Shown here: positions 8,601 to 49,416 of the stretch, piece by piece
Position numbering within the stretch: position 1 is the stretch's first letter
Layout of the letters: each line of letters starts with the position of its first letter
Source of the DNA: an uncultured Methanosarcinales archaeon
Lineage (GTDB): Archaea > Nanobdellota > Nanobdellia > Woesearchaeales > GW2011-AR9
Assembly: GCA_964498285.1 (NCBI GenBank)
Contig: CAZCGN010000001.1
Span: 100,150-164,149 of the forward strand
Direction of reading: 5' to 3'
Length of the DNA: 64,000 nucleotides
The notes under the pieces: generated by a model
Seen by the model: only the letters and a program-made list of their open reading frames with translations
Database searches by the model: none
What the model was told of the DNA's origin: nothing
Position numbers and translations under genes: made by a program

Positions 8601-9599
8601 AATCCCAGCAGACCTCAATACAGCTGAAGTGAAATTACCATCAAGCGCATCATTAAAGTTCTCATAAAGCGAAGCAAGCGGAGCTGCTGGAGCAGCGCAA
8701 GTTCCAGCAGTTGCGAAATTAAAATCATTGTAAGCAGTTAACACAGTTGCATTTGATAAGAGAGAAGGATTACTACCACCAGCCAGATCAATATTCGTAT
8801 AAAACCCTGGACGAATATTTCCATACCCCGAAAGATCAAAGTTCAGCACAGAGCTTGCAAAAGTGCTCGCAGAAGTAAATGAACAATTATATTCCAACGC
8901 AGTTGAATCGTATTTAACCGAAAGGTTACCAAATAAGTCTTGAGCGCCGCCTAAAATAACCACCCCCCAATTACCGCCATCATTGGAATCATTTGAGGGA
9001 AATAACGCAGTGACACCGCCCATGTCATTAGAGAGATACAATGGGCAAACTGAAATAATTTCATCCGCATCTACATCTTGGAGTATTAACCCTGCAGTCA
9101 TGGAATGATTTTTTTCCCCGGTTGCTTCAAATGTAGAAGAAGTATCAGTTAAGTTCAATTCCATTGAAAAATTAAAATCGCCATTAACAGGCATTGTATC
9201 AACCATAAAGAATGCTGCATTTGCACTGACAGTATTATCAGAGAGATTAGTATTAAACAAAGTTCCATTAATTAGAATCTCATTACCAGAAAGGGCCATA
9301 GTTAGACCAATTGGAGGATCAGTAAAATCAGTTTCAAGATCTGCGCTTGGACCACCATCAAAACTATCTGTAAGTCCGGCATTATCGCATGCAAGAATGT
9401 TAACACCCTCACTTGGAACGGCTGCTGTTCCTACAACTGCACCCGTTAAAAGATTAGCTCCACCACTTGTTGCAAAGAATTGCTCAAACAATCCAACATC
9501 TGCTGCTGGTGAAGCTGCATAGAAATTTAACCCAACAATAACAACTAATAACACCAATGATAATGAAAATAACGCTCTCTGTTTCAAATGTACCACCAC
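2667..9599 (-). CDS. giant (2310 aa) secreted cysteine-rich surface protein, heavily N-glycosylation-sequon-rich
   Basis: Uninterrupted 6.9-kb ORF with an N-terminal signal peptide (MVVHLKQRALFSLSLVLLVVIVGLNFYAASPA). There are dozens of N-x-S/T sequons. A central block of about 700 aa is extremely Cys-rich and includes CGNGQLQTGEMCDDGNTVSGDGCSATC, which matches the Myxococcus-type cysteine repeat. Two Asp/Cys motifs (DGIDNDNDGQVDCLDPNC and DGSDNDGDNLVDCDDPGC) resemble the MopE-like putative metal-binding motif. No C-terminal TM helix. Confidence 0.8.
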   Translation of the reverse strand: MVVHLKQRALFSLSLVLLVVIVGLNFYAASPAADVGLFEQFFATSGGANLLTGAVVGTAAVPSEGVNILACDNAGLTDSFDGGPSADLETDFTDPPIGLTMALSGNEILINGTLFNTNLSDNTVSANAAFFMVDTMPVNGDFNFSMELNLTDTSSTFEATGEKNHSMTAGLILQDVDADEIISVCPLYLSNDMGGVTALFPSNDSNDGGNWGVVILGGAQDLFGNLSVKYDSTALEYNCSFTSASTFASSVLNFDLSGYGNIRPGFYTNIDLAGGSNPSLLSNATVLTAYNDFNFATAGTCAAPAAPLASLYENFNDALDGNFTSAVLRSAGINFELIANKGSFNGTLAGATGATGYRVYTGAAATNNNQSTTVYVNFTLTNGTYEATGTINQRAMIEYYNLGADDYYTQCGLVHNGAQFQLNLLNDSSGPPATVVPLGGFAPTLEGNLTLDYENSTGLWNCSLLAGGQVASGTARRNAIPAGTSVGLTTYFQPQGPFSYNGSANVTFENLDYNHSSGARVGLPAPPAPAVIVPLSSFYEDFSAMNTTLLPNAGAELGTSVVNNYLMINGTVLTSGTQPWARRYTNDSYGTVGANNFSIGVNVTFQNTNDTLAASTALTAGVDIGTDLTSNMNTVDVRCNLQIGIEGSITLMLWNVSGPPASTDSVAIAEGQFTLIYDNVTNLLTCTFLDSAGATSTTSASRVLSSSSDIALVAGMNPSGSPANWNGTVNATFDNWNYTNNYVPVGTPPSPPQQPLPSFYDNVGLATINTSFYDVQDNNLRAVINSNSAYEFSNGTLVNRTGPSSSNIQTVQNFSGGPGFELTAALFMQNLTNTYTSNGTLTSVWAHAQLGLQQPTSTNNVPYCSVSMRTNNNQLRLYNASSSPPQNTTVAPSLTGGNMSGNLLLTYDNQTNLLTCSFEGAEVTATYNLSAVSDNHIVFLGGQIGIEGPGGATDNYSLKVNVSFNDINFTYTELAIVCGNGQLQTGEMCDDGNTVSGDGCSATCQDESSGSSFAGCTLCPTNANQAACETSGASNCNGKCNWNDENSDPDFQFCEMLSCVVGDSTNQTFCESGLNSLYGLGCTWDVGPSYCNPLGGDFFGDNCNDFDSDECQLSPGCFLNSTGGCENSGTFSASFGNPSCGFTTTDVVCQNITGCSWTGAICNGHEAPTPPVQCSDIVDRGLCGDATFLSTCCSWSSGACTSSFENTCYDSIADTPPGANYCEDYNSFNNQTLCEQIAGSPWYMPCSWDAAASMCGFNGAAFGTGGGHVSFDDLNTESACEATGGVWRSENFVVNGQTLTDNWCEFNFAGGGNCDTACYACENNANADWGNSTAQAESACENSALGFCEFDENSNSLNGLGWCGADDDYIANGGGDCSGECGACQFLTSPEAECSASNASCAWENNTASPQGGYCYSAGDSYCGNDCFSCLDESTCVNNGEGGAGACSWAGGYCEPVGYNGENCFDGIDNDNDGQVDCLDPNCATSAFCGGESLSSQFGDCPSYVINTTCLSNGCVWLQDDFEATFGGANAGHCGYPGEQCWQYDVNSTACDATTGCTFQTGSFCEVNNTIDEGCFPQQNETACLAATGCGWVNITGGPSWCEPVMYSECHGNTTRQTSQALCESNVTVSSTSTQICAWNTNRQACEPVCFSKTNTTCSDGTNGLCEVISGLCEPDSFGGSCYQYDGNQTYCDGALNATCTYFIDSNAANNVSVTENPGWCDPIGDAAFISFIGNEPFEGLGSASTGDATLGVAAIEDTFDIVSVGIRDATSQLVLGTGVADNLANSSICNGVPVSGGGLGTGVQNGTFFWYLDSDGDTTNSCTVRGDPSQTGYEFSFKYQATYTSSLSELKVSYRCVSGVWYPTPIPLTTNAQIMCDLIGGGMAGIDESELFDYTEFNTSVDLRIYSTVSNLVTNDSFISDAIGPVYYSPGAIGFAIEDCSAPSGDRDGDGLAASNDPDCSLFLQKGFPPNEAGFLCADGSDNDGDNLVDCDDPGCESDAFFCGGSLVVDPTDRTAPSVVWQKVSAFPTSAFVQYDTNEPANGTLRFYNNDSSCATLNATVRDIGIVDPALSAYKLWHSAPIDSYASNPEALANGLMNATTYFYKTRVCDISGNCAVSRCENFTTKDNLAECSGCSTTFNFEATPLPGETAMDPTGNLSFVFIFPDGTTSSLTANAAAGSQFNRTQMSQFDLKVSNPTVAAADNWSVTFINASATGSVTSAFQNFTAGSDLNFNTTSQGDFVGLGATKCQEIINIIRPTLIEFQIPGSSTSLWQCDAALSSCVDKTAGATLIGTDATSSTWRFPAEWGC

Positions 9600-20306: not shown

Positions 20307-20633
20307 ATGATATTTCCGTCATTTATGGAACATTCAATCGAAACATACAAGTTCTTTTTTGGAGCTTTAGCTAATCCCAATCGACTCGAGATAATCAACG
20401 TATTGCGGGCAGGCAAAAAGAACGTGGGCGAAATCTGCAATGCAACGAACTTTGAACAAACTATGGTCTCACATAACCTTAAAGTCCTAGAGCACCATGG
20501 AATGGTGTTCTCAGAAAAACAAGGCAAATTTAGGTATTACACTGTGAACTCAAAAACTATCAAACCACTTTTAGGGTTCATTGATGACCATATGAAAGAA
20601 TACTGTTGCAAAATCCTGGAGAAGAAACGATGA
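20307..20633 (+). CDS. ArsR/SmtB-family metal-responsive transcriptional regulator
   Basis: ALANPNRLEIINVLRAGKKNVGEICNATNFEQTMVSHNLKVLEHHGMV is an ArsR-type wHTH. Its stop overlaps the copA start (ATGA). Confidence 0.7.
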   Translation: MIFPSFMEHSIETYKFFFGALANPNRLEIINVLRAGKKNVGEICNATNFEQTMVSHNLKVLEHHGMVFSEKQGKFRYYTVNSKTIKPLLGFIDDHMKEYCCKILEKKR

Positions 20634-22810
20634 AAACAACATTAAATATTCAAGGAATGCATTGTGCGAGTTGTAGTACTATCATAACACGCACACTCAA
20701 AAAAGTTGAGGGTGTTAAAGAAGCTACCGTTAATTCTTCTACCGAGAAGGCCGACATTGAGTTCGATACTAAAAAAGTTGATGAAGCTACACTTATCAAC
20801 GCTATCAAAAGTAAAGGATATGGTGCCTACCCCAGTAAAGGTGTGAGCTATAAAGATCAAAAGAAGAAAAAAGAACAAGAGTTACGAAAACTCAAACAAA
20901 AAGTTATCATAAGTTCCATTCTCGCATTCCCAGCACTAATCCTTGGAATGTTTTTTATGAAGAATCCAATTCCGTTCCAAAATTACATCTTATGGATTCT
21001 TGCAACACCAATTCAATTCTACATCGGTGCAACATTCTATAAAGGAGCCTGGGGGGCGCTCAAAAATAAAACTGCAAATATGGATACCCTTATTGCCCTG
21101 GGTACGAGTGCAGCGTATTTTTATTCAGTATATATTGTGCTCTTCACGCACGAAATGCATCAATATTTTGAAACATCTGCTGTTCTGATTACATTAGTCC
21201 TCCTTGGAAAATACTTAGAAGCTGTTGCAAAAGGGAAAACAAGCCAAGCCATTTCAAAACTGATGAAGATTGGTGCAAAAACTGCAATTGTTATTCGAAA
21301 AGGTAAAGAGATCAAAGTAAAAATTGATGACGTGATTAAAGGAGATCTAATCTTAGTAAAACCTGGCGCGAAAATTCCGGTTGATGGAGTAATTGTTAAG
21401 GGCCACTCAACCATAAATGAGAGTATGGTAACTGGTGAGAGTATTCCAGTTGAGAAAAAGAAGGGAGATAATGTTATTGGCTCAACCATCAATAAACTAG
21501 GAAGCTTTACAATGAAAGCTACAAAGGTTGGCTCTGAAACCACCCTTGCACGTATCATTAAACTCATTGAAGAAGCGCAAACTAAAAAAGCGCCAATTCA
21601 AAGGTTTGCAGACACCATCTCCTCATTTTTTGTGCCAATAGTAATACTTATTGCGCTTACAACTTTAATGGTGTGGTTTTCTTTAGTGCATGCTGATTTT
21701 AGTTTTGCATTGCTTGCAGCGGTTGCTGTCCTTGTGATTGCATGCCCATGCGCTTTAGGCTTAGCTACACCAACAGCAATTATGGTAGGAACCGGTCTTG
21801 GGGCGCAACGCGGCATCCTAATTAAAGGAGGGGACGCTCTTGAAACAGCACATAAGCTTAAATTTGTTCTATTTGACAAGACTGGAACTATCACTAAAGG
21901 TGAACCTGAAGTTACCGATATTATAACAGCATCTGGTGTGAAAGAACAGAATGTGCTTTCCATTGCTGCAAGTATTGAAGCAGCTTCAGAACACCCCTTG
22001 GCTGAAGCAATTGTGAACCACGGAAAAGAAAAGAGGGCCAAGATACGAAAGGTGCGCGGATTTAAAGCAATTGCAGGGCACGGCGTTAAAGCAAAAATCG
22101 GAACAGAGCAGTATTTTATTGGAAGTCCAAAATTAATGGTCAAGCAAAAAATCTCGCTTAAAGCTATTCACAAAGAGATTGCTCGACTTGAAAATGAAGC
22201 AAAAACCGCTATGGTTGTTGCAACATCCAGAAAAGTTATGGGCATTATCGCTGTTGCTGATGAGATTAAACCAGATTCACCAAAAGCAATTGAGCAGCTT
22301 AAAAGAATGGACATTATTCCTATTATGATTACTGGGGACAATACCCGTACAGCAATCGCCATTGCAAAAAAGGTAGGATTAGAAAAATTCTTTGCAGAAG
22401 TTCTGCCTGAAGATAAAGCAGGCCACGTTAAAAAATTGCAGCGTAAAGGAAAGGTTGCAATGGTTGGAGATGGAATAAATGATGCACCAGCACTCGCGCA
22501 AGCAGACATAGGAATTGCAATGGGTTCAGGAACTGATGTTGCAATGGAGAGTGGAAACATTGTTCTTATGCAAAATAATTTGCTTGATGTACCGAAATCA
22601 ATCCATTTAAGTAGGCTTACTATGGCTAAAATCAAGCAGAACATGTTCTGGGCTCTCTTTTATAACATCTTAGGAATACCGGTTGCTGCAGGCGTGTTCT
22701 ATGTGTGGACCGGTTGGCTCTTAAACCCAATGATTGCAGGGGGGGCCATGGCCTTAAGTTCAGTAAGTGTTGTTACAAACGCGCTTCTGCTTAAAAGAAA
22801 GAGGCTCTGA
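20630..22810 (+). CDS. copA: copper-translocating P1B-type ATPase
   Basis: N-terminal HMA domain GMHCASCS, membrane CPC motif, DKTGT phosphorylation site, and GDGINDAPAL. Confidence 0.9.
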   Translation: MKTTLNIQGMHCASCSTIITRTLKKVEGVKEATVNSSTEKADIEFDTKKVDEATLINAIKSKGYGAYPSKGVSYKDQKKKKEQELRKLKQKVIISSILAFPALILGMFFMKNPIPFQNYILWILATPIQFYIGATFYKGAWGALKNKTANMDTLIALGTSAAYFYSVYIVLFTHEMHQYFETSAVLITLVLLGKYLEAVAKGKTSQAISKLMKIGAKTAIVIRKGKEIKVKIDDVIKGDLILVKPGAKIPVDGVIVKGHSTINESMVTGESIPVEKKKGDNVIGSTINKLGSFTMKATKVGSETTLARIIKLIEEAQTKKAPIQRFADTISSFFVPIVILIALTTLMVWFSLVHADFSFALLAAVAVLVIACPCALGLATPTAIMVGTGLGAQRGILIKGGDALETAHKLKFVLFDKTGTITKGEPEVTDIITASGVKEQNVLSIAASIEAASEHPLAEAIVNHGKEKRAKIRKVRGFKAIAGHGVKAKIGTEQYFIGSPKLMVKQKISLKAIHKEIARLENEAKTAMVVATSRKVMGIIAVADEIKPDSPKAIEQLKRMDIIPIMITGDNTRTAIAIAKKVGLEKFFAEVLPEDKAGHVKKLQRKGKVAMVGDGINDAPALAQADIGIAMGSGTDVAMESGNIVLMQNNLLDVPKSIHLSRLTMAKIKQNMFWALFYNILGIPVAAGVFYVWTGWLLNPMIAGGAMALSSVSVVTNALLLKRKRL

Positions 22811-22868: not shown

Positions 22869-24275
22869 GTGAGGGTGACTAAAATCATGAAAATAATCAA
22901 AGTAAAAGTTCAAGGAATGACTTGTGCTAGTTGTGAAGTTCTTCTTGAACGTGGAATGAAAAAAGTAGAAGGAGTACAGAACGTTCAAGTAAGTCGCTCT
23001 AAAGAAAAAGCAACAATTCATTGTGCAGAACATATTCAATTAGAAGATCTTCAAGCAGCTGTAGCAGATAAGGGCTACAGACTTATGCCATTTGATACTA
23101 TTGAAACACCAGTACGGCCCCCTTTCATTGTAAAAAACAAAAAGCGGTATAAAGAAATTGGCTCAGCACTCGCAGTCCTGATTGGAGCATACTTCCTCTT
23201 AAAAACATTTAACTTAATTCCTGAAGGTATTGGAATTACTGACAATATGAGTTATGGGTTTGTGTTTGTCATTGGTTTAGTTGCGGCAACATCAACCTGC
23301 CTTGCTGTTGCAGGAGGTCTGCTTTTAGCCATTGCAAATAAATATAGTGAAGCTAATCCAAATCTTACTGGACGGGAAAAATTCAAACCACATATCTGGT
23401 TTAATATTGGAAGAGTTGCTTCATACACCCTTCTTGGTGCTGCAATTGGCGCGTTAGGTGCGGTTCTTACACTTTCCTCAAAGGTTTCTGGTGCGATTAC
23501 CATTGCTGCAAGTGTACTTATGATTCTTATGGGCCTACAGTTGTTACAAATCTTTCCATGGCTCAACAAAGTGCAGCTTAAAATGCCGAAGTTCATTGCG
23601 CATAGAATCTATGAAGCTTCAGACGTTGAAGAAAACTCAGCAGGCGGTTTTTCAGAAACCAGTAAAACAACATCTTTTTTGTTCGGAGCTTCTACCTTCT
23701 TTTTACCTTGTGGCTTTACCCAAGCCCTCCAACTATATGTTCTTGGAGCAGGCAGTGCCATGGTAGGAGGGCTTACAATGCTTGCATTTTCTTTAGGAAC
23801 ACTACCTGCATTAGTTGGTATTGGCGCGTTCTCGTCACTTGCAAAAGGAAAAATGAAACACAGATTTATGACATTTTCAGCAATTCTCGTTATTGTATTG
23901 GGGATTTTTAACCTTCCTGCAGGATTAACTTTAGTTGGAGCTAATGTTGTTCTTGGAGGTGGAGTTGATGTTGTAGCACCTGCAGAAATTGAATTGGTTG
24001 ATGGCACACAGATCATTGATTTGGAGGTGCGAGGCCTTGATTATTATCCCTCTTCATTTGTTCTTAAAAAAGGTGTTCCTGTTCAATGGAACATTGATGG
24101 AACTAAAGCAGTTGGGTGCGCGCAGCTGTTTAGTGTTCCAGATTTAGGGATAAACGAACGCCTTTCTCGTAGTGAAATAAAGACTCTTACATTTACCCCA
24201 CAAAAGACAGGAAAAATCTTGTTTAGTTGTTCTATGGGAATGGCAGGCCCAGGAGTTTTGGAGGTAGTCGCATGA
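22869..24275 (+). CDS. three-part fusion: HMA metal-binding domain + polytopic Cys-containing membrane domain + C-terminal cupredoxin-like domain
   Basis: N-terminal GMTCASCE (HMA). About six TM helices with conserved Cys (ATSTCLAV, FLPCGF). The C-terminal beta domain ends in KTGKILFSCSMGMAGPGVLEV, a cupredoxin_1-like Cys/Met copper-site pattern. Confidence 0.6.
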   Translation: MRVTKIMKIIKVKVQGMTCASCEVLLERGMKKVEGVQNVQVSRSKEKATIHCAEHIQLEDLQAAVADKGYRLMPFDTIETPVRPPFIVKNKKRYKEIGSALAVLIGAYFLLKTFNLIPEGIGITDNMSYGFVFVIGLVAATSTCLAVAGGLLLAIANKYSEANPNLTGREKFKPHIWFNIGRVASYTLLGAAIGALGAVLTLSSKVSGAITIAASVLMILMGLQLLQIFPWLNKVQLKMPKFIAHRIYEASDVEENSAGGFSETSKTTSFLFGASTFFLPCGFTQALQLYVLGAGSAMVGGLTMLAFSLGTLPALVGIGAFSSLAKGKMKHRFMTFSAILVIVLGIFNLPAGLTLVGANVVLGGGVDVVAPAEIELVDGTQIIDLEVRGLDYYPSSFVLKKGVPVQWNIDGTKAVGCAQLFSVPDLGINERLSRSEIKTLTFTPQKTGKILFSCSMGMAGPGVLEVVA

Positions 24276-33133: not shown

Positions 33134-33388
33134 TTATTCGGAATCTGAAACTTCGTCGGACTCTTCTTCTGCAAGTTCCTCAACTTCTTCTTCAGGAACT
33201 TCTTCTACTACTGGTTCTTCTACAACATCATCAGCTGGCGCGCCATCTACAACTGCAGCGCCAGTCAGAGCATCAAAATTCGACCCTAACTCACTTACTT
33301 CAGTTACTGAATACAACGATGCAGATAAAGACACTACGAGTGCCACTGCCAAGATTGCTACAAGTGCATTATTTGAAACTGCTTTCAT
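33134..33388 (-). CDS. small secreted acidic protein (signal peptide + Glu/Asp/Val-rich tail)
   Basis: MKAVSNNALVAILAVALVVSLSASLYS followed by the DDVVEEPVVEEVPEEEVEELAEEESDEVSDSE tail. Confidence 0.45.
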   Translation of the reverse strand: MKAVSNNALVAILAVALVVSLSASLYSVTEVSELGSNFDALTGAAVVDGAPADDVVEEPVVEEVPEEEVEELAEEESDEVSDSE

Positions 33389-34279: not shown

Positions 34280-34360
34280 AGAACGATTGATTTAAAGATT
34301 TCTAGCACACAGAACTACCATCACACATTTTATAAACGAGAATAACTTAATTTTCCTCTA

Positions 34361-35905
34361 ATGAAGCTTCAAAACAGGCACATCTTAGCTTTACTTTTCA
34401 TTGCAACTCTAGCAATCAGACTCTTCTTAGCATTTGTAACACCAAACTTTACGTATGATTCATACTTTCATCTGCTGCAGGTTGAACAGATCATACAGAC
34501 CGGAACTCCTTTGTTTGATAACCCTTTCTCATATGGTGGTAGAGAACTTATCTTTCTCCCATTATTCCATTATTTTTCATCCATCTTTGCACTTGTGATT
34601 CCCCTAGAAATAGTTGCAAAAATTCTTCCTAATGTGCTGTTTGCATCACTAGGTCTTGTTGTATACATGATTGCAAAACGGTTAAGCAAAAGAAGCAGAA
34701 CGCCTCTCTTCTCAGCATTCATTGCATTTTTCCTACCCATTACTTTTCAGACACACGCATTTAGTCCCCTTCCCTTTGCATTGCTCTGTCTTCTGTTTAC
34801 ACTATATTTTTTCATACGAGCACGAAAGGAGAAGAATGCAAAGCAATTAATATATGGGTATGCTGCAGCACTTATCCTGCTCACCCTAAGCAGCCCCATT
34901 GCATCAATTCTGATTATCACACTTCTTTTTTACGCACTTTTCTCTCTCTTTGAAGGGCAGAAAGTAACACAAGCAGAAAAAGAAATTATGCTCTTTTCAC
35001 TTTTTTTCTTTTTATGGGTCCAGTTTCTCTTGTTCAAAAATGTATTCTTAACAGAGGGAGTTTCGTTCATTTGGCAAAATATTCCATCCATCATTAGAAC
35101 AGACTATTTTCCAGTATTAAATTTAGAAGAAGCGTTATTTCTGGTAGGTTTTATTCCACTTATCACCGGCGTCATATTTGTATACACCGCCCTTACAAAC
35201 GAGAAAAATAAGAACGTTTTTCTTATGCTGGGTATTCTGATTGCAAGTTTTGCGCTAACTGGACTTCGTCTCTTAGAATTTAACATTGCAATCGCATTTA
35301 CTGGACTTGTTCTTGCAATCATCTTCGCGCCATTCTACGACACGCTCGTCGAATATTATAAAAAATCGAAATTTAGCTTGTTTGAACAAGCTGCAACTCA
35401 AAAAGCAAAGAGTTTACTTCGAGTAAAAAAGTTTATGCAAATTTCAACCATAGTCTTGCTTATTTTGTTAATTCCAAGTATGGTCGTTCCTTCATTAACG
35501 TATTCACTCGAACAAGAAGTTCCAACTCAAGATGAAATTGAACTTTTTGTATGGTTAGATGCAAATACCGCGCAAGATGCAACTATTGCAGCCGATGTGC
35601 GAGAAGGCCATTTAGTAAGTTATCTTTCTAAACGAAAAAATGTCATGGATCCAGAGTTCCATTTGATTGATGATGTTGAAACACGATACACAGACATTAC
35701 CTCATTATACACAACCCATTTCCAAACACATGTGTTAGACATAGCACAGAAGTATGACATTAACTACATCGTGCTTACTGATGCTACACGAGAACGTTTA
35801 GATATTGGGCAACTTTCCTACAGAACAAGCAACTGTTTTGATCTTGTTCAAAATATTAATAATAATAAAGCTTACGCAGTTAGGTGTGAGTTAAACGCGC
35901 AATAA
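34361..35905 (+). CDS. GT-C-fold membrane glycosyltransferase-like protein (PMT/ArnT family 39-like), paralog 1
   Basis: At least 10 TM helices. First-loop acidic motif TYDSYFHL. C-terminal soluble domain. Confidence 0.5.
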   Translation: MKLQNRHILALLFIATLAIRLFLAFVTPNFTYDSYFHLLQVEQIIQTGTPLFDNPFSYGGRELIFLPLFHYFSSIFALVIPLEIVAKILPNVLFASLGLVVYMIAKRLSKRSRTPLFSAFIAFFLPITFQTHAFSPLPFALLCLLFTLYFFIRARKEKNAKQLIYGYAAALILLTLSSPIASILIITLLFYALFSLFEGQKVTQAEKEIMLFSLFFFLWVQFLLFKNVFLTEGVSFIWQNIPSIIRTDYFPVLNLEEALFLVGFIPLITGVIFVYTALTNEKNKNVFLMLGILIASFALTGLRLLEFNIAIAFTGLVLAIIFAPFYDTLVEYYKKSKFSLFEQAATQKAKSLLRVKKFMQISTIVLLILLIPSMVVPSLTYSLEQEVPTQDEIELFVWLDANTAQDATIAADVREGHLVSYLSKRKNVMDPEFHLIDDVETRYTDITSLYTTHFQTHVLDIAQKYDINYIVLTDATRERLDIGQLSYRTSNCFDLVQNINNNKAYAVRCELNAQ

Positions 35906-35906
35906 A

Positions 35907-37379
35907 ATGGTACTTAACAAACAGAGAAATAAGCATCTTGTACAAAAACGGATTATAATTATCCTTAGTTTGTACATCCTTGTAATTGGAGCAGTTCTTC
36001 TTACACGGTTTTCCGGTGGAATACCAATACTCTATGGCGAAGAGAGTTATACTCACCTAAATACTATACAAAGTGTGGAAGAAGGGGGGATTTCTCTTTC
36101 TAACATTAGCTTCGTTCAAATGCTTATACTTCCACTCGCTAAGATTATTCCATTACATCTCCTGTTCTTCATCTCACCAATTTTAGGATTACTATCAATT
36201 ATTCTTTTCCTCAGACTTACACGAAAAGCTGGGTTTGATAATCTTATCTCGACCTATTGGGGGGTTCTTCTTATTCTCTCTCCAGCATTTATCTTTACGT
36301 TCACTACATTAAGTACATATGCATTTAGCATGCTTTTTGCTCTTCTAGGCCTTACGGCCCTTCGAACAAGAAAGAAATATCTGCAATGGCTTAGTGTTCC
36401 ATTCTTTATGAGTGCTGCAGCTACAGAGGTTCTTTTTGGAGTGCTTATAATTTTACTTTTAACCAGTTTCATTGCATTACGAAAGGAAGGTTCTGATGAA
36501 ATATATCATCTAAAACTTCTTCAAAATCTTAAAGAAAAATCAACTCGATTCCGTGCAACAAAAATAACGTTAATTGTAAGTATCATTGCATTAGGAGTAT
36601 CTTTGTTTGCAACAGGAATTACTTTTATTGCCTTTAAATCTTCCACACATAATATCTGGCGCGACATAATTTCCGACTTTGGTGCAAAAGGAGGCATTAG
36701 TATTTTTGTTTTGATCCTAAGTATTACAGGACTGTTTTTTGCCTACAAACGAAGACAAGTTTTGTACGCATCATTAGTTATCCTGATCCCCGCATATTTT
36801 TGGAACACACATACAATTTTCTTTCTTACAATCCCCCTCACCTATGCTGCAGCGTTAGGTCTTGCACGCATTACAAATCGCAAATGGCAACTTACAGATC
36901 TTAAAACAATTACTCTCTTTCTACTTGCCCTAGGTATTGTATTTTCAACATTAACATTTACAGAACGTCTAGCTGAATACTCTCCTTCAGCAGAGATGAA
37001 CAATGCACTCATTTGGCTCAAAGAAAATGCTCCTGAGGATACGAGCGTTCTTACACTCAGAGAAGATGGACAGTTTACTGAATTCATTAGTGGAATGAAA
37101 GTATTTGATCATACTCAATTTACAACAGATACAATTGATCCCGCTCAACTTGATCCAACCATACATGTTCCATCCTCACCTATCTTTACTATTGCATACA
37201 CTCAAGTTCTGTTCCCAATTTTTGATCAAGAAAACATAGAATATGTTTATATTACTCCTAAAATCAAAGGTATCTTAGCAGAAGATCAAGGGATTAGATT
37301 TGTCCTTCGTAACGAAAACTTTAAAATGATCTATGCATCCGAAGGTCATGAAATTTGGGAATATTCTCCTATTAGCTAG
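35907..37379 (+). CDS. GT-C-fold membrane glycosyltransferase-like protein, paralog 2
   Basis: Polytopic, first-loop acidic motif YGEESYTHL, same architecture as its neighbour. Confidence 0.5.
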   Translation: MVLNKQRNKHLVQKRIIIILSLYILVIGAVLLTRFSGGIPILYGEESYTHLNTIQSVEEGGISLSNISFVQMLILPLAKIIPLHLLFFISPILGLLSIILFLRLTRKAGFDNLISTYWGVLLILSPAFIFTFTTLSTYAFSMLFALLGLTALRTRKKYLQWLSVPFFMSAAATEVLFGVLIILLLTSFIALRKEGSDEIYHLKLLQNLKEKSTRFRATKITLIVSIIALGVSLFATGITFIAFKSSTHNIWRDIISDFGAKGGISIFVLILSITGLFFAYKRRQVLYASLVILIPAYFWNTHTIFFLTIPLTYAAALGLARITNRKWQLTDLKTITLFLLALGIVFSTLTFTERLAEYSPSAEMNNALIWLKENAPEDTSVLTLREDGQFTEFISGMKVFDHTQFTTDTIDPAQLDPTIHVPSSPIFTIAYTQVLFPIFDQENIEYVYITPKIKGILAEDQGIRFVLRNENFKMIYASEGHEIWEYSPIS

Positions 37380-37391
37380 AAAGGAGAGATT

Positions 37392-38672
37392 TTGGGTTAC
37401 ATGGCACTTATTGAATCACTTATCATAGGAGTAGTATATTTTATCTCTCTATATTTTAGTGTCTTTTTTATTCTGGTCTATTTTGATAAACGAGAAGAGT
37501 TCAAAAAAGAAGTATCATCAGAGGAATTAGACACATACCCCCTGATTTCTATAATCATTCCGGCATATAATGAAGAGAAAACTATCAAAGGAACACTTTC
37601 CTCTGTTGCTGCCATTGATTATCCGAAAGATAGGCTTGATGTTATTGCAATAAATGATGGATCAAATGATTCTACCTTTCAAGTTATGCAAAAATTCTTA
37701 GAAGAACATGATGTTCCTCATTTTCGTATTCTTTCTCACAAAAATAAAGGTAAGGCTGCGTCGATGAATACTGCTATTGCGATGGCTAAAGGTGAGTTTT
37801 TTGCATGTCTTGATGCCGATTCTTTTGTTGATAGTAAAACCCTTCGCAAAATGCTTCATTTGTATTATAAAGAAAATGATAGTCAACTTGCAGTGATCAC
37901 TCCTGCAATGAAAGTATACAAACCAAAAAATATCTTACAAAAAATTCAGTGGATAGAGTACCTTTTAATGGTGTTTGTTGGCAGAATCACATCACACCTT
38001 GATGCAATTTATGTGGCGCCCGGTCCGTTCTCTTTATATCGAAAAGATATTATTCAAGAAGTTGGGGGGTTTGACGAACATACCCTCACTGAAGATCAAG
38101 AAATTGCATACAGGCTCCAAGAGAAACAATATAGAATCAAACAATGTTTTGATGGGTATGTACATACTGTAAGTCCAGGTAAATTAGTCGGGTTCTATAA
38201 ACAGCGTAGACGATGGTACATGGGAAGCATCTCTTGCGCGTATCAATACAAGCATGTTATAGGCAAAAAAGCGTATGGGGATTTTGGCGTTGTACAGATG
38301 ATCAAAAATGTTCTTGGGTATGGACTTGCTGTTGCAGGAATTGGGTTTGCAGCATACCTTTTTGGCTGGCCTTTGATTATGAAAATCAAAAATGGTCTTT
38401 CCATAAATTTTGACATTTGGCCATACATTACGAATTTAGATTTTACGTTGAGTCCATACCTTTTTGATGTGCAAAAAGTCATTGTATTTGTAGCATTGTT
38501 TTTCACTGGTCTTTTCTTTTTCTATAAAGCACATACAAATGCTAAAGAGAAAATAACAACATTTGGATATCTTCCGATTATTCCATACTTCGCGTTTTAT
38601 TATCTTTTGAAAGGTGCCATCTTAATGCTCTCATTTGTTGAGTTCACGCGAAAGAAAAAGATTAAGTGGTGA
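37392..38672 (+). CDS. processive family-2 glycosyltransferase (cellulose/chitin-synthase-like) with C-terminal TM helices
   Basis: IIIPAYNEE, NDGSND, LDADS (DxD), and QRRRW (YKQRRRWYMGS), the processive beta-glycosyltransferase signature. Confidence 0.7.
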   Translation: MGYMALIESLIIGVVYFISLYFSVFFILVYFDKREEFKKEVSSEELDTYPLISIIIPAYNEEKTIKGTLSSVAAIDYPKDRLDVIAINDGSNDSTFQVMQKFLEEHDVPHFRILSHKNKGKAASMNTAIAMAKGEFFACLDADSFVDSKTLRKMLHLYYKENDSQLAVITPAMKVYKPKNILQKIQWIEYLLMVFVGRITSHLDAIYVAPGPFSLYRKDIIQEVGGFDEHTLTEDQEIAYRLQEKQYRIKQCFDGYVHTVSPGKLVGFYKQRRRWYMGSISCAYQYKHVIGKKAYGDFGVVQMIKNVLGYGLAVAGIGFAAYLFGWPLIMKIKNGLSINFDIWPYITNLDFTLSPYLFDVQKVIVFVALFFTGLFFFYKAHTNAKEKITTFGYLPIIPYFAFYYLLKGAILMLSFVEFTRKKKIKW

Positions 38673-38751
38673 AAGGAATAGATATATTCTGGACCTTAAT
38701 AGATCCCAACACACAAGTATTTAAAAAGAGACATTCCAAAATATATCCAGT

Positions 38752-39474
38752 ATGCCAAAAGCCGCACCAAAAGAAGCAAAAAGAGGTTCTTTTCGAAAAG
38801 TAAGCACGAAAAAGTATCTTATAGCAGGCGTTATAACATTCCTTATTTTCTCGTTAGGACTTACGCTTGGAATGATTTTTGAAGAGCAACGATATAACTG
38901 GGCAGAAGATATTAATCAAGAACAAGATGTGAACTATCTAAGCTTACAGCTCCAGTTTTTGTATCTAAGTGCGCTTGAAGAAGAACAAAATTGTCCCGTT
39001 CTTTTAGGAACATTGCAGCAAAGTGTTGATGAGCTTGGTAAATCACTTTCCAAAATCTTAACGTTTGAGAAAGAAAACTCCATTAGCCAGAGTGATTATA
39101 AAACACTTGAAAGAAGGTATACACTTGATAATCTGCGTTATTGGATCCTAGCGGATCAAGCAAAAGAACAATGTGATTTAGATATAGCTTCAATCCTCTA
39201 TTTCTATTCTGATGATTGTGCATCATGTCCAGGACAAGGAACAATCCTTACCTATTTCAAAAAAGTCTTTGGTGAGAAAGTGCTTATTTTTCCAATCAAC
39301 GTGGATTTAGAAGACCATGAACCAATGGTGGGCATTGCAACATCTCTGCATGATATTCAAACTCTTCCAACTATCATCATCGAGGATGAAAAGTATGAAG
39401 GAATTGTAAAGAAAAATCAGCTCCAAACGATCATTTGTAACACACTTGAAGATACGCAAGAATGCCAAGCATGA
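38752..39474 (+). CDS. membrane-anchored thioredoxin-like protein (CxxC)
   Basis: N-terminal TM anchor. CASC active-site-like motif (YFYSDDCASCPGQ) in a thioredoxin-fold-like context. Confidence 0.4.
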   Translation: MPKAAPKEAKRGSFRKVSTKKYLIAGVITFLIFSLGLTLGMIFEEQRYNWAEDINQEQDVNYLSLQLQFLYLSALEEEQNCPVLLGTLQQSVDELGKSLSKILTFEKENSISQSDYKTLERRYTLDNLRYWILADQAKEQCDLDIASILYFYSDDCASCPGQGTILTYFKKVFGEKVLIFPINVDLEDHEPMVGIATSLHDIQTLPTIIIEDEKYEGIVKKNQLQTIICNTLEDTQECQA

Positions 39475-40934
39475 AACACGCAAGTTCACGGTGGATAAAA
39501 AGAAATAGATATCTAATTGGCATTCTGTTACTTGCAATTATTTTCAGATTGATTCTTCTTTCACGCAACTATGGTTTATGGTGGGATTCACATATCTACA
39601 TTGGTATGGGAAAATACCTTTCCTCAAACGGTGCAAGCGGTATATGGGAAGTCTTTCGTCCTCTTGGACTTCCCATTTTGCTAGGAAGCATATGGAAAGC
39701 CAATCTTCCTCTTCTTTTTATGGCAAAGCTGCTTGATCTTATCTTCTCAACCCTTGCAATCTATCTTGTATATGAAATTTCACACAAAGCATACAATAAA
39801 ACAGTTGCACTCTATGCAACTTTCATTTTTGCAACCATACCTTTGTTCATGCTCTATACTGGGCTTATTTTAACTGAACCCCTAACACTTGTGTTCGCCC
39901 TTCTTGCACTCAACTTATTCATAAAACGACGGGGTCTTAATCACCCTAACATTGTTCTTGCAACTTCTGGTATTTGTGCTTCTTTAGCTTTTCTTACAAA
40001 GTTTCCGGCAGGAGTACTTCTGCCTTCTTTTCTTATAGCTATCTTCTTGCGTAAAGGGCACCGTTGGCCCGATATTAAAACAAAAATACGTGACATTTTT
40101 GTTTTCACAATAAGTTTTATCATTCCAACTATTCCTTTTTTCATATTTAACCATAGAACATACGAACATGCATTCATTCCGCTTACAACTGGTTCTGGAA
40201 TCATTAACACATTTACCTGGCTGTATAACTCAAGTGCATTGTTCTATTTTACAGAATTCTTTTTACATAATTTTGTGTTCCTTTTAGTGCCAATTGCATT
40301 AATTTGCTTTCTCTATTACAAAGAGTGGAGAACAGAAACAAAAAGCGTGATTTACATAACAGCAATCCTTCTTTTTCTCTACTTTTGGCAAAGTGTTGCA
40401 CGAAAAGAAGTGAGGTACATGACCCTAACACTACCATTTTTTTCTATTATAGCAGCAAGCATGCTATCTTATGCATACTATAGTATAAAGAAGCAATCTC
40501 ATTGGGGTATACGGATTGGATCTTTTGTTGTCATAAGTATTCTTTTCATAGCAGCATCGCATCTTACAAGCTTTGAACAATTGCCGGCAACCCCTCAAGA
40601 TGGCATCATGCAAGATATTGTAGAATTGTATGATGAAAATGAATTTAATGGACCAATTTTTATTTCACATCCGTTCCTTTTAGCATATCTTGACAACACC
40701 GTGCTTCCTACAACGAGCGATAGTACAACCGCCAAAAAAGAATATGAAAGATTGCATGGAAGGTTTGAGACCATTATCTTACGAAGTTGTGATTTCCATT
40801 GTCAAGAAAATGATACGGATTGTCAAGGGAAAAAAGACTCTTTTCTAACCCAAATACGGCAAGAGAACACGCTCCTTTTTTCGCGTGGCTATGATACAAA
40901 TCAGTGTCAAGTGACAGTTTTCACTGCAAAATGA
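39462..40934 (+). CDS. GT-C-fold membrane glycosyltransferase-like protein, paralog 3
   Basis: Polytopic, first-loop motif GLWWDSHIYIGMG, ArnT/PMT_2-like layout. Confidence 0.5.
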   Translation: MPSMKHASSRWIKRNRYLIGILLLAIIFRLILLSRNYGLWWDSHIYIGMGKYLSSNGASGIWEVFRPLGLPILLGSIWKANLPLLFMAKLLDLIFSTLAIYLVYEISHKAYNKTVALYATFIFATIPLFMLYTGLILTEPLTLVFALLALNLFIKRRGLNHPNIVLATSGICASLAFLTKFPAGVLLPSFLIAIFLRKGHRWPDIKTKIRDIFVFTISFIIPTIPFFIFNHRTYEHAFIPLTTGSGIINTFTWLYNSSALFYFTEFFLHNFVFLLVPIALICFLYYKEWRTETKSVIYITAILLFLYFWQSVARKEVRYMTLTLPFFSIIAASMLSYAYYSIKKQSHWGIRIGSFVVISILFIAASHLTSFEQLPATPQDGIMQDIVELYDENEFNGPIFISHPFLLAYLDNTVLPTTSDSTTAKKEYERLHGRFETIILRSCDFHCQENDTDCQGKKDSFLTQIRQENTLLFSRGYDTNQCQVTVFTAK

Positions 40935-40976: not shown

Positions 40977-41627
40977 ATGCTTCTTATGACAAGTATCAAC
41001 CATAGTGTATGGAAATTTCTTGCTGAAGACATCAGTATTCAAAAAAATCTTGAACGAGGCCTTATTAACATTCGTGGCCTTGCACGATATTTGATTAAAG
41101 AGTTCGGCCTTCCTGCATCCATGGATGCGGTTATTAGTGCAATCCGCAGGTATGAAACAGAAGTTCTCTTTAGCAAAGAGAAAAAGCAGCTTGACTCATT
41201 ATTTACAGAAGCGAGGATCACAACAAAAGATAACGTTGCATGCATCACTCTTAAAGAATATGAGTTTGAAGCTATTGCAAACGACTTTGTAGGATCACAA
41301 ACTCTTAAGAAAAATTTTCGCCTTCTTAAAAGTAAAGAGAACGTGAAAATCTTTGTGAACCAGGACGATATTGAGGCTAAAAAAGCAGTATTCTCATCAA
41401 TGAATCTACTTAATGTAGCAACGGATCTTTCTGAGATTCGTATTTCAATGCCTGAAGAAGTTACTGAATGTGTTGGCGTTTTAGCACGTATCGGCCAAGA
41501 AATTGCGCTGCAAGAAGTTAATGTTGAAGATATTATCTCAGCACTTCCAGAATTCTTGTTATATGTAAAAAGCTCAGACATTATTAAAGCACATAAAGCG
41601 CTTGTGAATTTAACTGGTAAAGCCTAA
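40977..41627 (+). CDS. hypothetical protein
   Basis: 216-aa soluble ORF with no motif recognised. Confidence 0.35.
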   Translation: MLLMTSINHSVWKFLAEDISIQKNLERGLINIRGLARYLIKEFGLPASMDAVISAIRRYETEVLFSKEKKQLDSLFTEARITTKDNVACITLKEYEFEAIANDFVGSQTLKKNFRLLKSKENVKIFVNQDDIEAKKAVFSSMNLLNVATDLSEIRISMPEEVTECVGVLARIGQEIALQEVNVEDIISALPEFLLYVKSSDIIKAHKALVNLTGKA

Positions 41628-41664: not shown

Positions 41665-42114
41665 ATGCAACAGAAATTTGTTCATATGATCTTTCGAGAT
41701 CTTACAACGTTTGGTGGAGAAATCTTCTATTTACTCGTATTAGCTCTCACATTTGTATTGCATAAAATGTCTCTTTTCTGGGATTTATTGTTAGGGAACC
41801 TTCTTGCAATTGCAATTGTTGTACTGATTCGACTTTTCTATTTCAAACCAAGACCAAATAAACAGACTTTTTCTAATCTAATTGAAAAAATCGATGCCTC
41901 GTCTTTTCCTAGTTTGCATACTGCAAGAATTTGGTTTCTCGCCCTTTCTTTTATGAGTTTCTGGGGATTTAGCGCGCGTGTTGTGATTTTACTAAGTGTA
42001 CTTGCACTTGTTACAACATACTCAAGAATTTATTTGAAGAAACACGATTGGTTCGATGTAAGTTTTGGTGTTGTTTTGGCAGTAGCATTGTATTTTGTTG
42101 TGCCAATGCTTTAA
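41665..42114 (+). CDS. PAP2-family membrane phosphatase
   Basis: KPRPNKQTF (KxxxxxxRP), SFPSLHTA (PSGH-like), SRIYLKKHDWFD (SRxxxxxHxxxD). Confidence 0.6.
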   Translation: MQQKFVHMIFRDLTTFGGEIFYLLVLALTFVLHKMSLFWDLLLGNLLAIAIVVLIRLFYFKPRPNKQTFSNLIEKIDASSFPSLHTARIWFLALSFMSFWGFSARVVILLSVLALVTTYSRIYLKKHDWFDVSFGVVLAVALYFVVPML

Positions 42115-48714: not shown

Positions 48715-49416
48715 ATGGTGGAAAACTCGGGACCTTTTATTTCTGTGATTATTCCTGCACACAACGAGGAAAAGTACATTGCAAAGACGCTTTCCTCAGT
48801 GTTTAGCCAAAACTACCCGTTATTTGAAATCGTAGTAGTGCCAAATGGATGTACAGATAACACCCAAAAAGTCGTTCAAGCAGCTATTAAAGGTTCTAGT
48901 GCTAAAACCAAGATCTTAAATGTTTCACAAAAAGAGGCCCATGTGAGTAAGGCACGTAATAAGGGAGCATCAATTGCCAAAGGTGAGATTCTGGTCTTTT
49001 TGGATGCAGACACTCTTCTTGCAGATAACGCACTTTCTACTATTGCAAAAAAGTTCACTGTAAAACGTAGTGTTGGCACGCTTCATTTTGTCCCAGATAC
49101 TAAAAGAGTACAGCATTCCCTAGTTGCAGCATACCAAAATTTCATTCATACTACAAAAATTCACAAAGGGGCCTCAGGAGTTTTCATCTGCCACAAAAAT
49201 CATTTTGAGCAAGTTGGTGGGTTTAATAAAGATCTAAAGCTTTTTGAGCACAAAGATTTGCAAAAAAGGTTGTCTGTGTTTGGTAGTTATACAAAACTAA
49301 GCGCTGACGCCATAACCTCTATGCGAAGATACACAAACAGAGGAATTCTTAAAAACATAGCCTTCTGGGTTAAAGCATTAGGACAAAAAGAAAACACATA
49401 TGAGGCGATACGATGA
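48715..49416 (+). CDS. family-2 glycosyltransferase
   Basis: ISVIIPAHNEEKYI, VVVPNGCTDNT, LDADT (DxD). Confidence 0.75.
   Translation: MVENSGPFISVIIPAHNEEKYIAKTLSSVFSQNYPLFEIVVVPNGCTDNTQKVVQAAIKGSSAKTKILNVSQKEAHVSKARNKGASIAKGEILVFLDADTLLADNALSTIAKKFTVKRSVGTLHFVPDTKRVQHSLVAAYQNFIHTTKIHKGASGVFICHKNHFEQVGGFNKDLKLFEHKDLQKRLSVFGSYTKLSADAITSMRRYTNRGILKNIAFWVKALGQKENTYEAIR

Follow-up and report, generated by a model that had tools for sequence, protein, structure and literature searches.

A candidate envelope-glycan operon of woesearchaeal archaea that pairs a processive-type glycosyltransferase with a membrane thioredoxin-fold protein

The locus

This study concerns a run of co-directional genes in a 64,000-nucleotide stretch of contig CAZCGN010000001.1 (assembly GCA_964498285.1, positions 100,150 to 164,149), hereafter called the window. 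Five of these genes, designated A, B, GT2, D and C, encode three polytopic proteins of the GT-C glycosyltransferase class, a membrane glycosyltransferase of processive type and a membrane protein with a thioredoxin fold. We propose that they form a layered operon for envelope-glycan assembly, with a synthase and its co-synthase at the core, a glycan that is probably of N-acetylglucosamine (GlcNAc) type, and GT-C enzymes that process it at the outer face. We give this proposal about an even chance of being right.

A first-pass annotation had described six consecutive plus-strand genes at 34361-40934 as a membrane glycosylation locus. Only five open reading frames (ORFs) are found there, and two more co-directional genes lie beyond this range. 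The ORFs are otherwise placed as annotated, all on the plus strand and tightly packed, with spacings of 1, 12, 79 and -13 nt for A-B, B-GT2, GT2-D and D-C, respectively. The start codon of B lies 1 nt past the stop of A, and the start of C overlaps the end of D by 13 nt. The quoted motifs are also present: TYDSYFH in A, GEESYTH in B, WWDSH in C, QRRRW in GT2 and CASC in D. The features are as follows.

34328-34336, + strand: TTTATAAA-like element, possible archaeal TATA box for A-B-GT2 (by eye)
34361-35905, + strand: gene A, 514 amino acids (aa), GT-C protein with STT3/AglB-type fold
34457-34459, + strand: Asp33 of A, first extracytoplasmic loop (alignment to AglB)
35594-35608, + strand: residues 412-416 of A, DVREG, opposite WWDYG/WWDFG of AglB (profile alignment)
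35907-37379, + strand: gene B, 490 aa, distant paralogue of A
37392-38672, + strand: GT2, 426 aa from TTG, membrane processive-type glycosyltransferase
38202-38216, + strand: QRRRW motif of GT2 (translation)
38752-39474, + strand: gene D, 240 aa, membrane thioredoxin-fold CASC protein
39217-39228, + strand: CASC (CxxC) active-site motif of D (translation, AlphaFold2 model)
39462-40934, + strand: gene C, 490 aa, PMT_2-type GT-C protein
40977-41627, + strand: 216-aa ORF without family, place in the system uncertain
41665-42114, + strand: PAP2-family phosphatase, polyprenyl-diphosphate phosphatase-like, last co-directional gene (Pfam PAP2, 50.7 bits)

A predicted processive-type synthase

In Pfam, GT2 matched Glycos_transf_2 (103.6 bits) as well as Glyco_tranf_2_3 and Glyco_trans_2_3, and its best curated full-length match was TIGR03937 PgaC_IcaA (178 bits, residues 16-423). 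A profile search of the PDB recovered PcManGT (E 8e-26), BcsA (2e-21), the hyaluronan synthase HAS1 (7e-14) and chitin synthase (3e-10). The first-pass annotation had called GT2 processive from QRRRW, and alignment extends this to the full set of processive motifs (DGS, DAD, TED, QRRRW): D89-G-S, D141-A-D143, E234-D235 and Q271-R-x-R-W275 are invariant in 46 homologues. The same homologues share PAYNE, GK, CLDADS, QxxEY, V-x-PGPF and YGDFG, and together these invariants correspond to eight of the nine chitin-synthase motifs listed in PMC12653383. Motifs M1-M8 of the chitin synthase PsChs1 read TYMNE, DGR, KASKL, DVGT, QNFEY, VLPGA, ED and QRRRW (PMC12653383); the counterparts in GT2 are PAYNE, DGS, GKA, DADS, QWIEY, VAPGP, ED and QRRRW. 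Unlike chitin synthase, NodC and hyaluronan synthase, GT2 has no identified SWG/WGTKG motif and only about four hydrophobic segments (~5-31, 299-330, 363-381 and 394-419, read off the sequence). For chitin synthases of DPANN archaea, our literature search gave no relevant result.

GT2 is hence best described as a predicted membrane-embedded synthase of the PgaC/BcsA/NodC/chitin-synthase class with a full set of processive-type motifs. Its sugar is most plausibly GlcNAc, which is our best guess. The homologue in a JGI relative is 423 aa long and the 426-aa form is not on record; the true start of GT2 is probably the ATG at 37401, which would give 423 aa.

An alternative explanation might be that GT2 makes a glycolipid, either as a GT21/ceramide-glucosyltransferase-like enzyme or as a processive glycosyl-archaeol synthase, and that the GT-C enzymes extend lipoglycans. 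The QxxRW motif is also present in GT21 enzymes, GT2 matched Pfam Glyco_transf_21 (E 3.9e-10), and its profile matched ceramide glucosyltransferase structures over residues 11-275. However, the GT21 matches are far weaker than those to PgaC, BcsA and HAS, the QxxEY and V-x-PGP motifs of the channel entrance are conserved, and the genes show no lipid-synthesis context. We consider a glycolipid synthase highly improbable.

The thioredoxin-fold partner of GT2

The first-pass annotation had taken the CASC protein D for thioredoxin-like, and D does have a true thioredoxin fold with a CxxC motif. In its AlphaFold2 model (pLDDT 79.6, above 90 in the thioredoxin part), a transmembrane (TM) helix runs into a three-helix stalk of ~100 aa, which is followed by the thioredoxin fold. 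Foldseek matched the model to thioredoxins in the PDB (E ~1e-5, TMt 0.7-0.8), and the family profile matched a PDB thioredoxin with E 3e-6. Matches to sequence models of thioredoxin stayed below threshold (13 against 23.5 bits for PF00085; 18 against 96.8 for TIGR01068). C156-A-S-C159 stands at the N-terminus of the first thioredoxin helix (159-176), and P206 occupies the cis-Pro position, where it would adopt the cis conformation. The protein is single-pass, with a GxxxG TM helix and a conserved cytoplasmic juxtamembrane motif, R-K-x-S-x-x-K-Y.

The family of D comprises at least 701 clusters at 50% identity (E <=1e-10), all of ~215-240 aa, and has no Pfam model. Its distant members keep G36xxxG40, C81, C141, C156xxC159, Q162 and P206, and the CxxC is kept in 113 of the 128 best full-length members. 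The two conserved cysteines outside the CxxC, C81 and C141, are structural.

D had been regarded as an unusual addition to the locus, but it is rather an obligate partner of GT2. Among distant loci, obtained by a metagenome scan seeded with distant D proteins, GT2 lies immediately upstream of D in 38 of 43 and within ~640 bp in three more, and the commonest junction between the two is a short stop/start overlap. The other neighbours of the distant pairs are unrelated (CDC48, PPDK, Lhr, an S-layer-like protein, prepilin peptidase). Genes resembling A or B occur in 6 of 69 distinct distant loci, and the pair stands without them in the remaining 63. In the Woesearchaeal set, the similarity scores of GT2 and D are correlated with r = 0.98, compared to 0.23 for A and GT2, 0.07 for A and D, and 0.78 for A and RadB. 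Because of these correlations, GT2-D seems to evolve or to be exchanged as one unit beside a vertically inherited A-B pair. A-B still adjoins GT2-D even where it is inverted (loci L051, L126 and L134). Taken as predicted from these gene arrangements, GT2-D is an obligate, translationally coupled two-gene module and the conserved core of the system. In one locus (L057:2-3295), a CDC48/AAA ATPase with an intein and a LAGLIDADG homing endonuclease lies immediately upstream of the pair.

This arrangement resembles BcsA-BcsB, PgaC-PgaD and IcaA-IcaD. In these systems, too, an integral-membrane GT2 enzyme with D, DxD, ED and QxxRW (PgaC/IcaA being the best curated match here) has a small TM-anchored partner, the gene of which directly follows that of the synthase and co-evolves with it. 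In contrast, the partner here carries its CxxC in a thioredoxin fold that stands on a helical stalk, the system is archaeal, GT2 fails all equivalog cutoffs, and no element for cyclic di-GMP or PilZ was seen. Searches of the PDB with the D profile and with Foldseek recovered no synthase partner of thioredoxin type, and we know of no synthase partner of the thioredoxin-fold CxxC kind.

A copper-type P1B ATPase (HMA and E1-E2 ATPase domains) is encoded elsewhere in the window, at 20606-22810. It is followed at 22869-24275 by a 468-aa fusion of an HMA domain, a DsbD_2 membrane electron transporter and a cupredoxin-like domain. This fusion might act as a partner of D and other thioredoxin-like proteins outside the cytoplasm.

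Possibly, D is a general thiol-disulfide oxidoreductase similar to ResA, TlpA or CcmG, which has no role in glycan synthesis and stands beside GT2 by chance or for convenient co-expression. Its classical thioredoxin fold, CxxC and cis-Pro position are what such an enzyme would have, a DsbD_2-type electron transporter is encoded in the window, and the conserved extracytoplasmic cysteines of A, C and D need oxidation. Yet this explanation is very unlikely in view of the near-constant position and near-perfect co-variation of the two genes. D also has a juxtamembrane motif, a GxxxG helix and a ~100-aa stalk beyond the bare thioredoxin fold, and in a variant of the cassette described below it stays beside GT2 despite having lost the CxxC.

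Genes A and B encode a remodelled pair of predicted STT3 fold

The AlphaFold2 model of A (pLDDT 93, pTM 0.91) has ~11 TM helices and a C-terminal alpha/beta domain. Its top 22 Foldseek matches in the PDB are STT3, AglB, DPY19 and PglB (TMq 0.6-0.74, best E 5e-12). ArnT follows with E 4e-7, and PMT1, PMT2 and PMT4 reach only E 0.02-0.06. The family profile of A further matched the C-terminal globular domains of Archaeoglobus AglB-S (3vgp and 3vu0, the latter AfAglB-S2) and of STT3. Against the lineage's own AglB, hhalign gave 95% (E 4e-8, 395 columns) for A and 93% (E 2.5e-7) for B. The profiles of A, B and C used in these comparisons were built from 26-47 homologues; single A and C sequences, run with phmmer against PDB sequences, gave nothing meaningful, so that family profiles were required.

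Whether A, B and C are paralogues, as first annotated, depends on the method. It is not visible by BLASTP, where the weak matches among them (E 0.011, 0.017 and 0.24) cannot settle the matter, but it is supported by profile comparison: A-B at 99.6% (E 8e-24, 438 columns, full length), B-C at 97% (E 1e-10) and A-C at 93.6% (E 2e-7). The first-loop motifs align in the A and B profiles (fTY[DE]SYfHL with G[EQ]ESYyHL). All three are thus predicted GT-C homologues, with a homology that is visible at profile level only, and none falls into a family other than glycosyltransferases. The view of a membrane glycan-assembly locus is also maintained. A and B appear to be a close pair with a common C-terminal domain and C a more distant member; from its homology to A (hhalign 99.6%), B would also have the STT3/AglB fold. 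B itself matched no Pfam or NCBIfam family.

The active sites of A and B differ strongly from those of canonical oligosaccharyltransferases. The catalytic acid of the first extracytoplasmic loop (EL1) is kept as Asp33 in A (D/E in the family) and Glu46 in B (at least 90% conserved), compared to the invariant Asp88 of the lineage's AglB. Asp33 aligns with the EL1 Asp of canonical AglB (IDPYLWY), of which the upstream acid is not kept. The second DxD is not conserved: D205-T-D207 of AglB stands opposite the non-acidic S-F-T-P of A. The same holds for the TIXE Glu, with TTVAE350 of AglB opposite IWQNIPxxI; both come from hhalign, in which the alignment of these loops is uncertain. WWDYG is not kept either. 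At its position A reads DVREG (x-L-E-E-G in the family), with only the Gly retained, and B reads P-E-N-x-Y. Neither A nor B matched Pfam STT3 (PF02516) in a search with an E threshold of 1. Compared to STT3, AglB and PglB (GT66) and to the C-mannosyltransferase DPY19, A thus shares the fold including the C-terminal domain, which is short as in AfAglB-S2, and the EL1 acid. It differs in having ~11 instead of 13 TM helices, and A and B form a tandem, divergent pair. Since the EL1 acid is kept while the second DxD, the TIXE Glu and WWDYG are lost, we propose that A and B use a polyprenyl-phosphate-linked donor and an acceptor other than N-X-S/T.

The first-pass annotation had suggested a check for an AglB/STT3 gene elsewhere in the genome, and in relatives the outcome is positive. 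They carry a separate canonical AglB with SWWDFGHWF and a Pfam STT3 match of 112-128 bits, and in 11 loci its gene is found on the same strand, 1.5-6 kb downstream. A was also considered as the organism's own AglB, and rejected on account of this canonical WWDFG protein with its Pfam STT3 match. Going by their fold, their altered active sites and the separate canonical AglB of relatives, A and B are additional STT3-fold paralogues in which the acceptor and metal site has been remodelled, and neither PMT/ArnT-like enzymes nor the organism's oligosaccharyltransferase.

In several relatives, the canonical AglB (Pfam STT3) is a fusion protein with a C-terminal parvulin/PpiC-type peptidyl-prolyl isomerase domain (PPIase; Rotamase_3, 100-104 bits), as in L046:5921-9037 and L022:16459-19836 and also in L010, L024, L027, L034, L045 and L054. 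By its predicted domains, this fusion joins an oligosaccharyltransferase to an extracytoplasmic folding catalyst.

Gene C and lipid-linked sugars

C is clearly assigned to Pfam PMT_2 (40.5 bits, compared to a gathering score of 26.1) and belongs to the NCBIfam LA_3751/3752 family; its family profile matched the mannosyltransferase 9s6t in the PDB with E 1e-3. Its first loop contains a WWD that is invariant in the family, and its C-terminal domain is rich in Cys. Among A, B and C, only C appears PMT_2-like; the PMT_2 (PF13231) match of A is marginal (26.9 bits) and B has none. The PMT/ArnT-like character that had been suggested for all three is therefore retained for C but not for A, which has the STT3/AglB fold by model, nor for B, by its homology to A. 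Of the family assignments anticipated at the outset, PMT_2 holds for C and marginally for A, and GT2 matched its expected families including Glyco_trans_2_3; B matched none, and the Thioredoxin match of D is below threshold.

In 19 related loci, C is directly followed by a UbiA-family gene and in many of those next by a PAP2 phosphatase. These UbiA proteins resemble polyprenyl-phosphate phosphoribosyltransferases (PPPRS): on the model of decaprenyl-phosphate phosphoribosyltransferase they reach 207-225 bits and narrowly miss its curated cutoff of 234. A role of UbiA in lipid synthesis, as DGGGP synthase, was rejected, with ~45 bits against 207-225. In mycobacteria, DPPR synthase (Rv3806c) and a phosphatase (Rv3807c) work with GT-C arabinosyltransferases, and the order of UbiA and PAP2 after C is reminiscent of this pair. 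Kelly et al. (2024; PMC11127046) describe a three-component system for extracytoplasmic pentofuranose addition, made up of a PPPRS-type UbiA, a flippase and the GT-C enzyme GT136, and present it as belonging to bacterial glycan pathways. Compared by description, C resembles GT136 as a roughly 11-TM GT-C protein with an extra C-terminal domain, and the UbiA genes of the 19 relatives match the first component. The system differs from the bacterial one in that the 64-kb window holds no such UbiA, and neither a MATE-type flippase nor DprE1/E2 was noticed in the loci examined.

One might still suppose that A, B and C are three PMT/ArnT-like transferases of mannosyl or aminoarabinosyl type, which carry out something like ordinary O-mannosylation beside an unrelated exopolysaccharide synthase. 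A and C are both above the PMT_2 gathering threshold, and A homologues are publicly named 'glycosyltransferase family 39 protein' or 'hypothetical'; for A, the former name is probably misleading. Against this, the model of A ranks PMT1, PMT2 and PMT4 far under STT3, AglB, DPY19 and PglB (1e-11), and the Pfam matches listed for A, B and C, up to E 1, include neither a MIR domain nor PMT (PF02366). Moreover, the UbiA neighbour of C in relatives points towards a polyprenyl-phosphoribose donor and not Dol-P-Man. Three ordinary PMT/ArnT-like enzymes are therefore extremely improbable.

Conservation and variants of the cassette

A genome scan with B found the cassette, with RadB on the minus strand followed by A-B-GT2-D and often C, in ~50 species-level genomes labelled Woesearchaeota or Nanoarchaeia. 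An earlier word-index search had yielded 7 proteins, which made B look extremely rare; this was an artefact of the index. The flanks of the cassette differ in some genomes (e.g. locus L001), and its arrangement is far beyond chance.

Two variants can be distinguished. The first, which is that of the window, has a CxxC-bearing D and gene C, usually with UbiA and then PAP2; PAP2 lies downstream of the cassette in 16 loci. In the second, D is devoid of the CxxC, C is missing, and the opposite strand carries a NagZ-like GH3 gene. The CxxC of D and gene C are both present in 25 loci and both missing in 14; 2 loci have the CxxC only and none has C only, although these loci are not phylogenetically independent. 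The GH3 gene occurs in 13 loci and stands beside D wherever C and the CxxC are missing. In L012:13877-15013 (minus strand) and 12 other loci of the second variant it is a single-domain GH3 protein, which scores 92 bits on the NagZ beta-N-acetylhexosaminidase model (cutoff 207).

Other relatives carry further GlcNAc-related genes in their loci, namely a CE4 deacetylase, a WecA-like GT4 and an AglJ-like GT2; like GH3, these neighbours count in favour of the proposed GlcNAc-type glycan. In L028:16576-21131 and L018:14201-19059, for instance, a WecA/MraY-like GT4, an AglJ/PpgS-like polyprenyl-phosphate sugar synthase, an AsnB-type asparagine synthase and a CE4 polysaccharide deacetylase lie downstream.

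A second route of protein glycosylation?

In the eukaryotic oligosaccharyltransferase (OST), the thioredoxin-fold subunits Ost3, Ost6, TUSC3 and MagT1 keep cysteine-containing acceptor proteins unfolded. By analogy, the locus might be a second protein-glycosylation route, in which GT2 elongates a dolichol-linked glycan, A and B transfer it en bloc to non-sequon sites of surface proteins, such as Ser or Thr, and the thioredoxin domain of D holds Cys-containing acceptors unfolded. Several observations are in line with this. The STT3/AglB fold of A extends to the C-terminal domain, a membrane thioredoxin-fold CxxC protein is encoded with STT3-fold enzymes, and canonical aglB, AglJ-like GT2 and WecA-like GT4 genes lie nearby in relatives. 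The AglB of the lineage is fused to a folding catalyst, the operon includes PAP2 as a carrier-recycling enzyme, and PcManGT, whose paper names N-glycan biosynthesis in its title, is among the best PDB matches of GT2.

However, D pairs with GT2 and not with A and B, most distant loci being devoid of A/B-like genes, and GT2 keeps the processive synthase motifs that flank the channel entrance. A and B lack WWDYG, the second DxD and the TIXE Glu. The TM number and domain order of D also differ, since D has a single N-terminal TM helix and a C-terminal thioredoxin domain, the reverse of Ost3/6. Ost3/6, TUSC3 and MagT1 were not among its top 50 Foldseek matches in the PDB, all of which were generic thioredoxins. 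D was rejected as an Ost3/6 homologue on these two grounds, architecture and structural matches, and we consider such a protein-glycosylation route unlikely.

Proposed layered assembly of an envelope glycan

From the gene content, folds, motif sets, conservation, adjacency, coupling and co-variation observed here, we infer the physical complexes GT2-D and A-B, the product, and the donors and acceptors of A, B and C in the following way. GT2, an inverting enzyme, would build the polymer on the cytoplasmic side from a UDP-activated sugar, and the chain would pass outward through the TM region of the enzyme itself. If the sugar is GlcNAc, the product would be a chain similar to chitin or to poly-N-acetylglucosamine (PNAG). 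Like BcsB, PgaD and IcaD with their respective synthases, D might pack against GT2, using its GxxxG helix and juxtamembrane motif, and would place its helical stalk and redox-active thioredoxin domain over the outer face. There, in a layer specific to the lineage, the translationally coupled A and B, probably a heterodimer by analogy with Pmt1-Pmt2 and EmbA-EmbB, may use a polyprenyl-phosphate-linked donor on a non-sequon acceptor. C would probably add a pentofuranose or another single sugar from a lipid-linked donor at the same face. In these ways A-B and C may modify or transfer the glycan, and PAP2 could recycle or dephosphorylate the lipid carrier.

A number of points weigh against this layered assembly. 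GT2 is under every curated equivalog cutoff (PgaC 178 against 422, NodC 65 against 550, CelA 85 against 699), and the match to Pfam Chitin_synth_2 is below threshold (25.1 against 27) and covers residues 43-90 only. Among solved membrane synthases that have a translocation channel, BcsA is the nearest by profile, and therefore the sugar of GT2 is not assignable. In addition, PcManGT, an archaeal membrane GT2 of the N-glycan pathway whose fold is minimal and cellulose-synthase-like, scores comparably. The active site of A and B seems so strongly remodelled that their catalysis stays putative. The CxxC is dispensable in the second variant, where D still adjoins GT2. The 64-kb window contains no UbiA, GH3, CE4 or AglB; a search for WW[DE][YWFN][GA] likewise gave no match in it. 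Finally, the loci are not independent observations, as a single order with small, syntenic genomes supplies much of the synteny.

A more specific proposal goes further. GT2-D might be a new class of archaeal polysaccharide synthase with an obligate, extracytoplasmic redox thioredoxin co-subunit, coupled in Woesearchaeales to an A-B heterodimer of STT3-fold enzymes that has given up the WWDYG site, which binds N-X-S/T, in exchange for a new acceptor site, and that acts as a non-sequon oligosaccharyltransferase (e.g. O-linked, or directed at glycan or lipid) and attaches the product to the cell surface. In this combined form the proposal is speculative and quite unlikely to be right.

Operon structure and genomic setting

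The TTTATAAA-like element lies ~25-33 nt 5' of the start codon of A, and a similar TATTTAAAAA stands upstream of D; both boxes are preceded by CACACA. The CACACA and the A/T-rich TATA-like box lie at 34318-34336 for A and at 38708-38727 for D, and in both cases the box precedes the start codon by ~25-33 nt. Two promoters with a common upstream motif are thus suggested, one for A-B-GT2 and one for D-C and the genes after it. A scan for sigma-70 promoters and terminators gave the same counts as shuffled sequences; its consensus is bacterial and uninformative for an archaeon.

The 216-aa ORF after C had no significant family match, the best being an aspartate-kinase equivalog (E 0.006) and an ACT-domain protein model (E 0.04). 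A 213-aa ORF occupies the equivalent position in the JGI relative, and a counterpart is absent from the other loci. The PAP2 phosphatase has a weak NCBIfam undecaprenyl-diphosphate phosphatase match besides its Pfam match.

The remainder of the window consists of archaeal housekeeping genes (split RpoA, FttA, RadB, archaeal-type S2, TruD, Kae1). A 2310-aa ORF at 2667-9599 (minus strand), with only a weak DUF4215 match, presumably encodes a giant surface protein, which could be a target of glycosylation. Between S2 and RadB, an 84-aa ORF at 33134-33388 (minus strand) begins with a hydrophobic helix, ends in an extremely acidic tail rich in Glu, Asp and Val, and has no family match. A small soluble GT2 of 233 aa at 48715-49416 scores 115 bits on the arsenosugar-type model TIGR04283 (cutoff 182) and is followed by CMP kinase and a histidine-phosphatase-family protein.

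Among the relatives, L008 (5839-8955) has two adjacent genes with the ATP-citrate lyase/synthase domains Citrate_synth_N, Citrate_bind, Ligase_CoA and Citrate_synt, which is unexpected in a reduced DPANN genome. L008, L010, L015, L016, L024 and others that carry the cassette are titled 'uncultured Methanosarcinales archaeon' in public records. Their gene content and their similarity to Woesearchaeota metagenome-assembled genomes suggest that these labels are wrong.

Implications

All parts of the locus belong to known superfamilies, and in this sense it is not categorically new. We found no description of the cassette in the literature searched, and neither the GT2-thioredoxin module nor the STT3-fold tandem without WWDYG, nor the two in combination, turned up in the family libraries or papers searched. 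The module ties a chitin-synthase-like GT2 to a thioredoxin-fold partner from a large family that Pfam does not yet model. The tandem, standing beside a canonical AglB, offers natural experiments in how an oligosaccharyltransferase scaffold can be retargeted. To our knowledge, the enzymes of archaeal O-glycosylation are still unidentified, and A and B are candidates. The neighbours of C, in turn, are signs of a polyprenyl-phosphoribose/GT-C pentofuranose module in archaea. If the more specific proposal of a redox-partnered synthase coupled to A-B were true, this would be a prokaryotic multi-subunit transferase with an oxidoreductase subunit, a functional echo of the eukaryotic OST with Ost3/6.

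DPANN archaea, whose genomes are tiny, rely on cell-cell contact with hosts. Because this five-gene envelope-glycan operon has been retained across an entire order of such organisms, it is likely central to DPANN surface biology.

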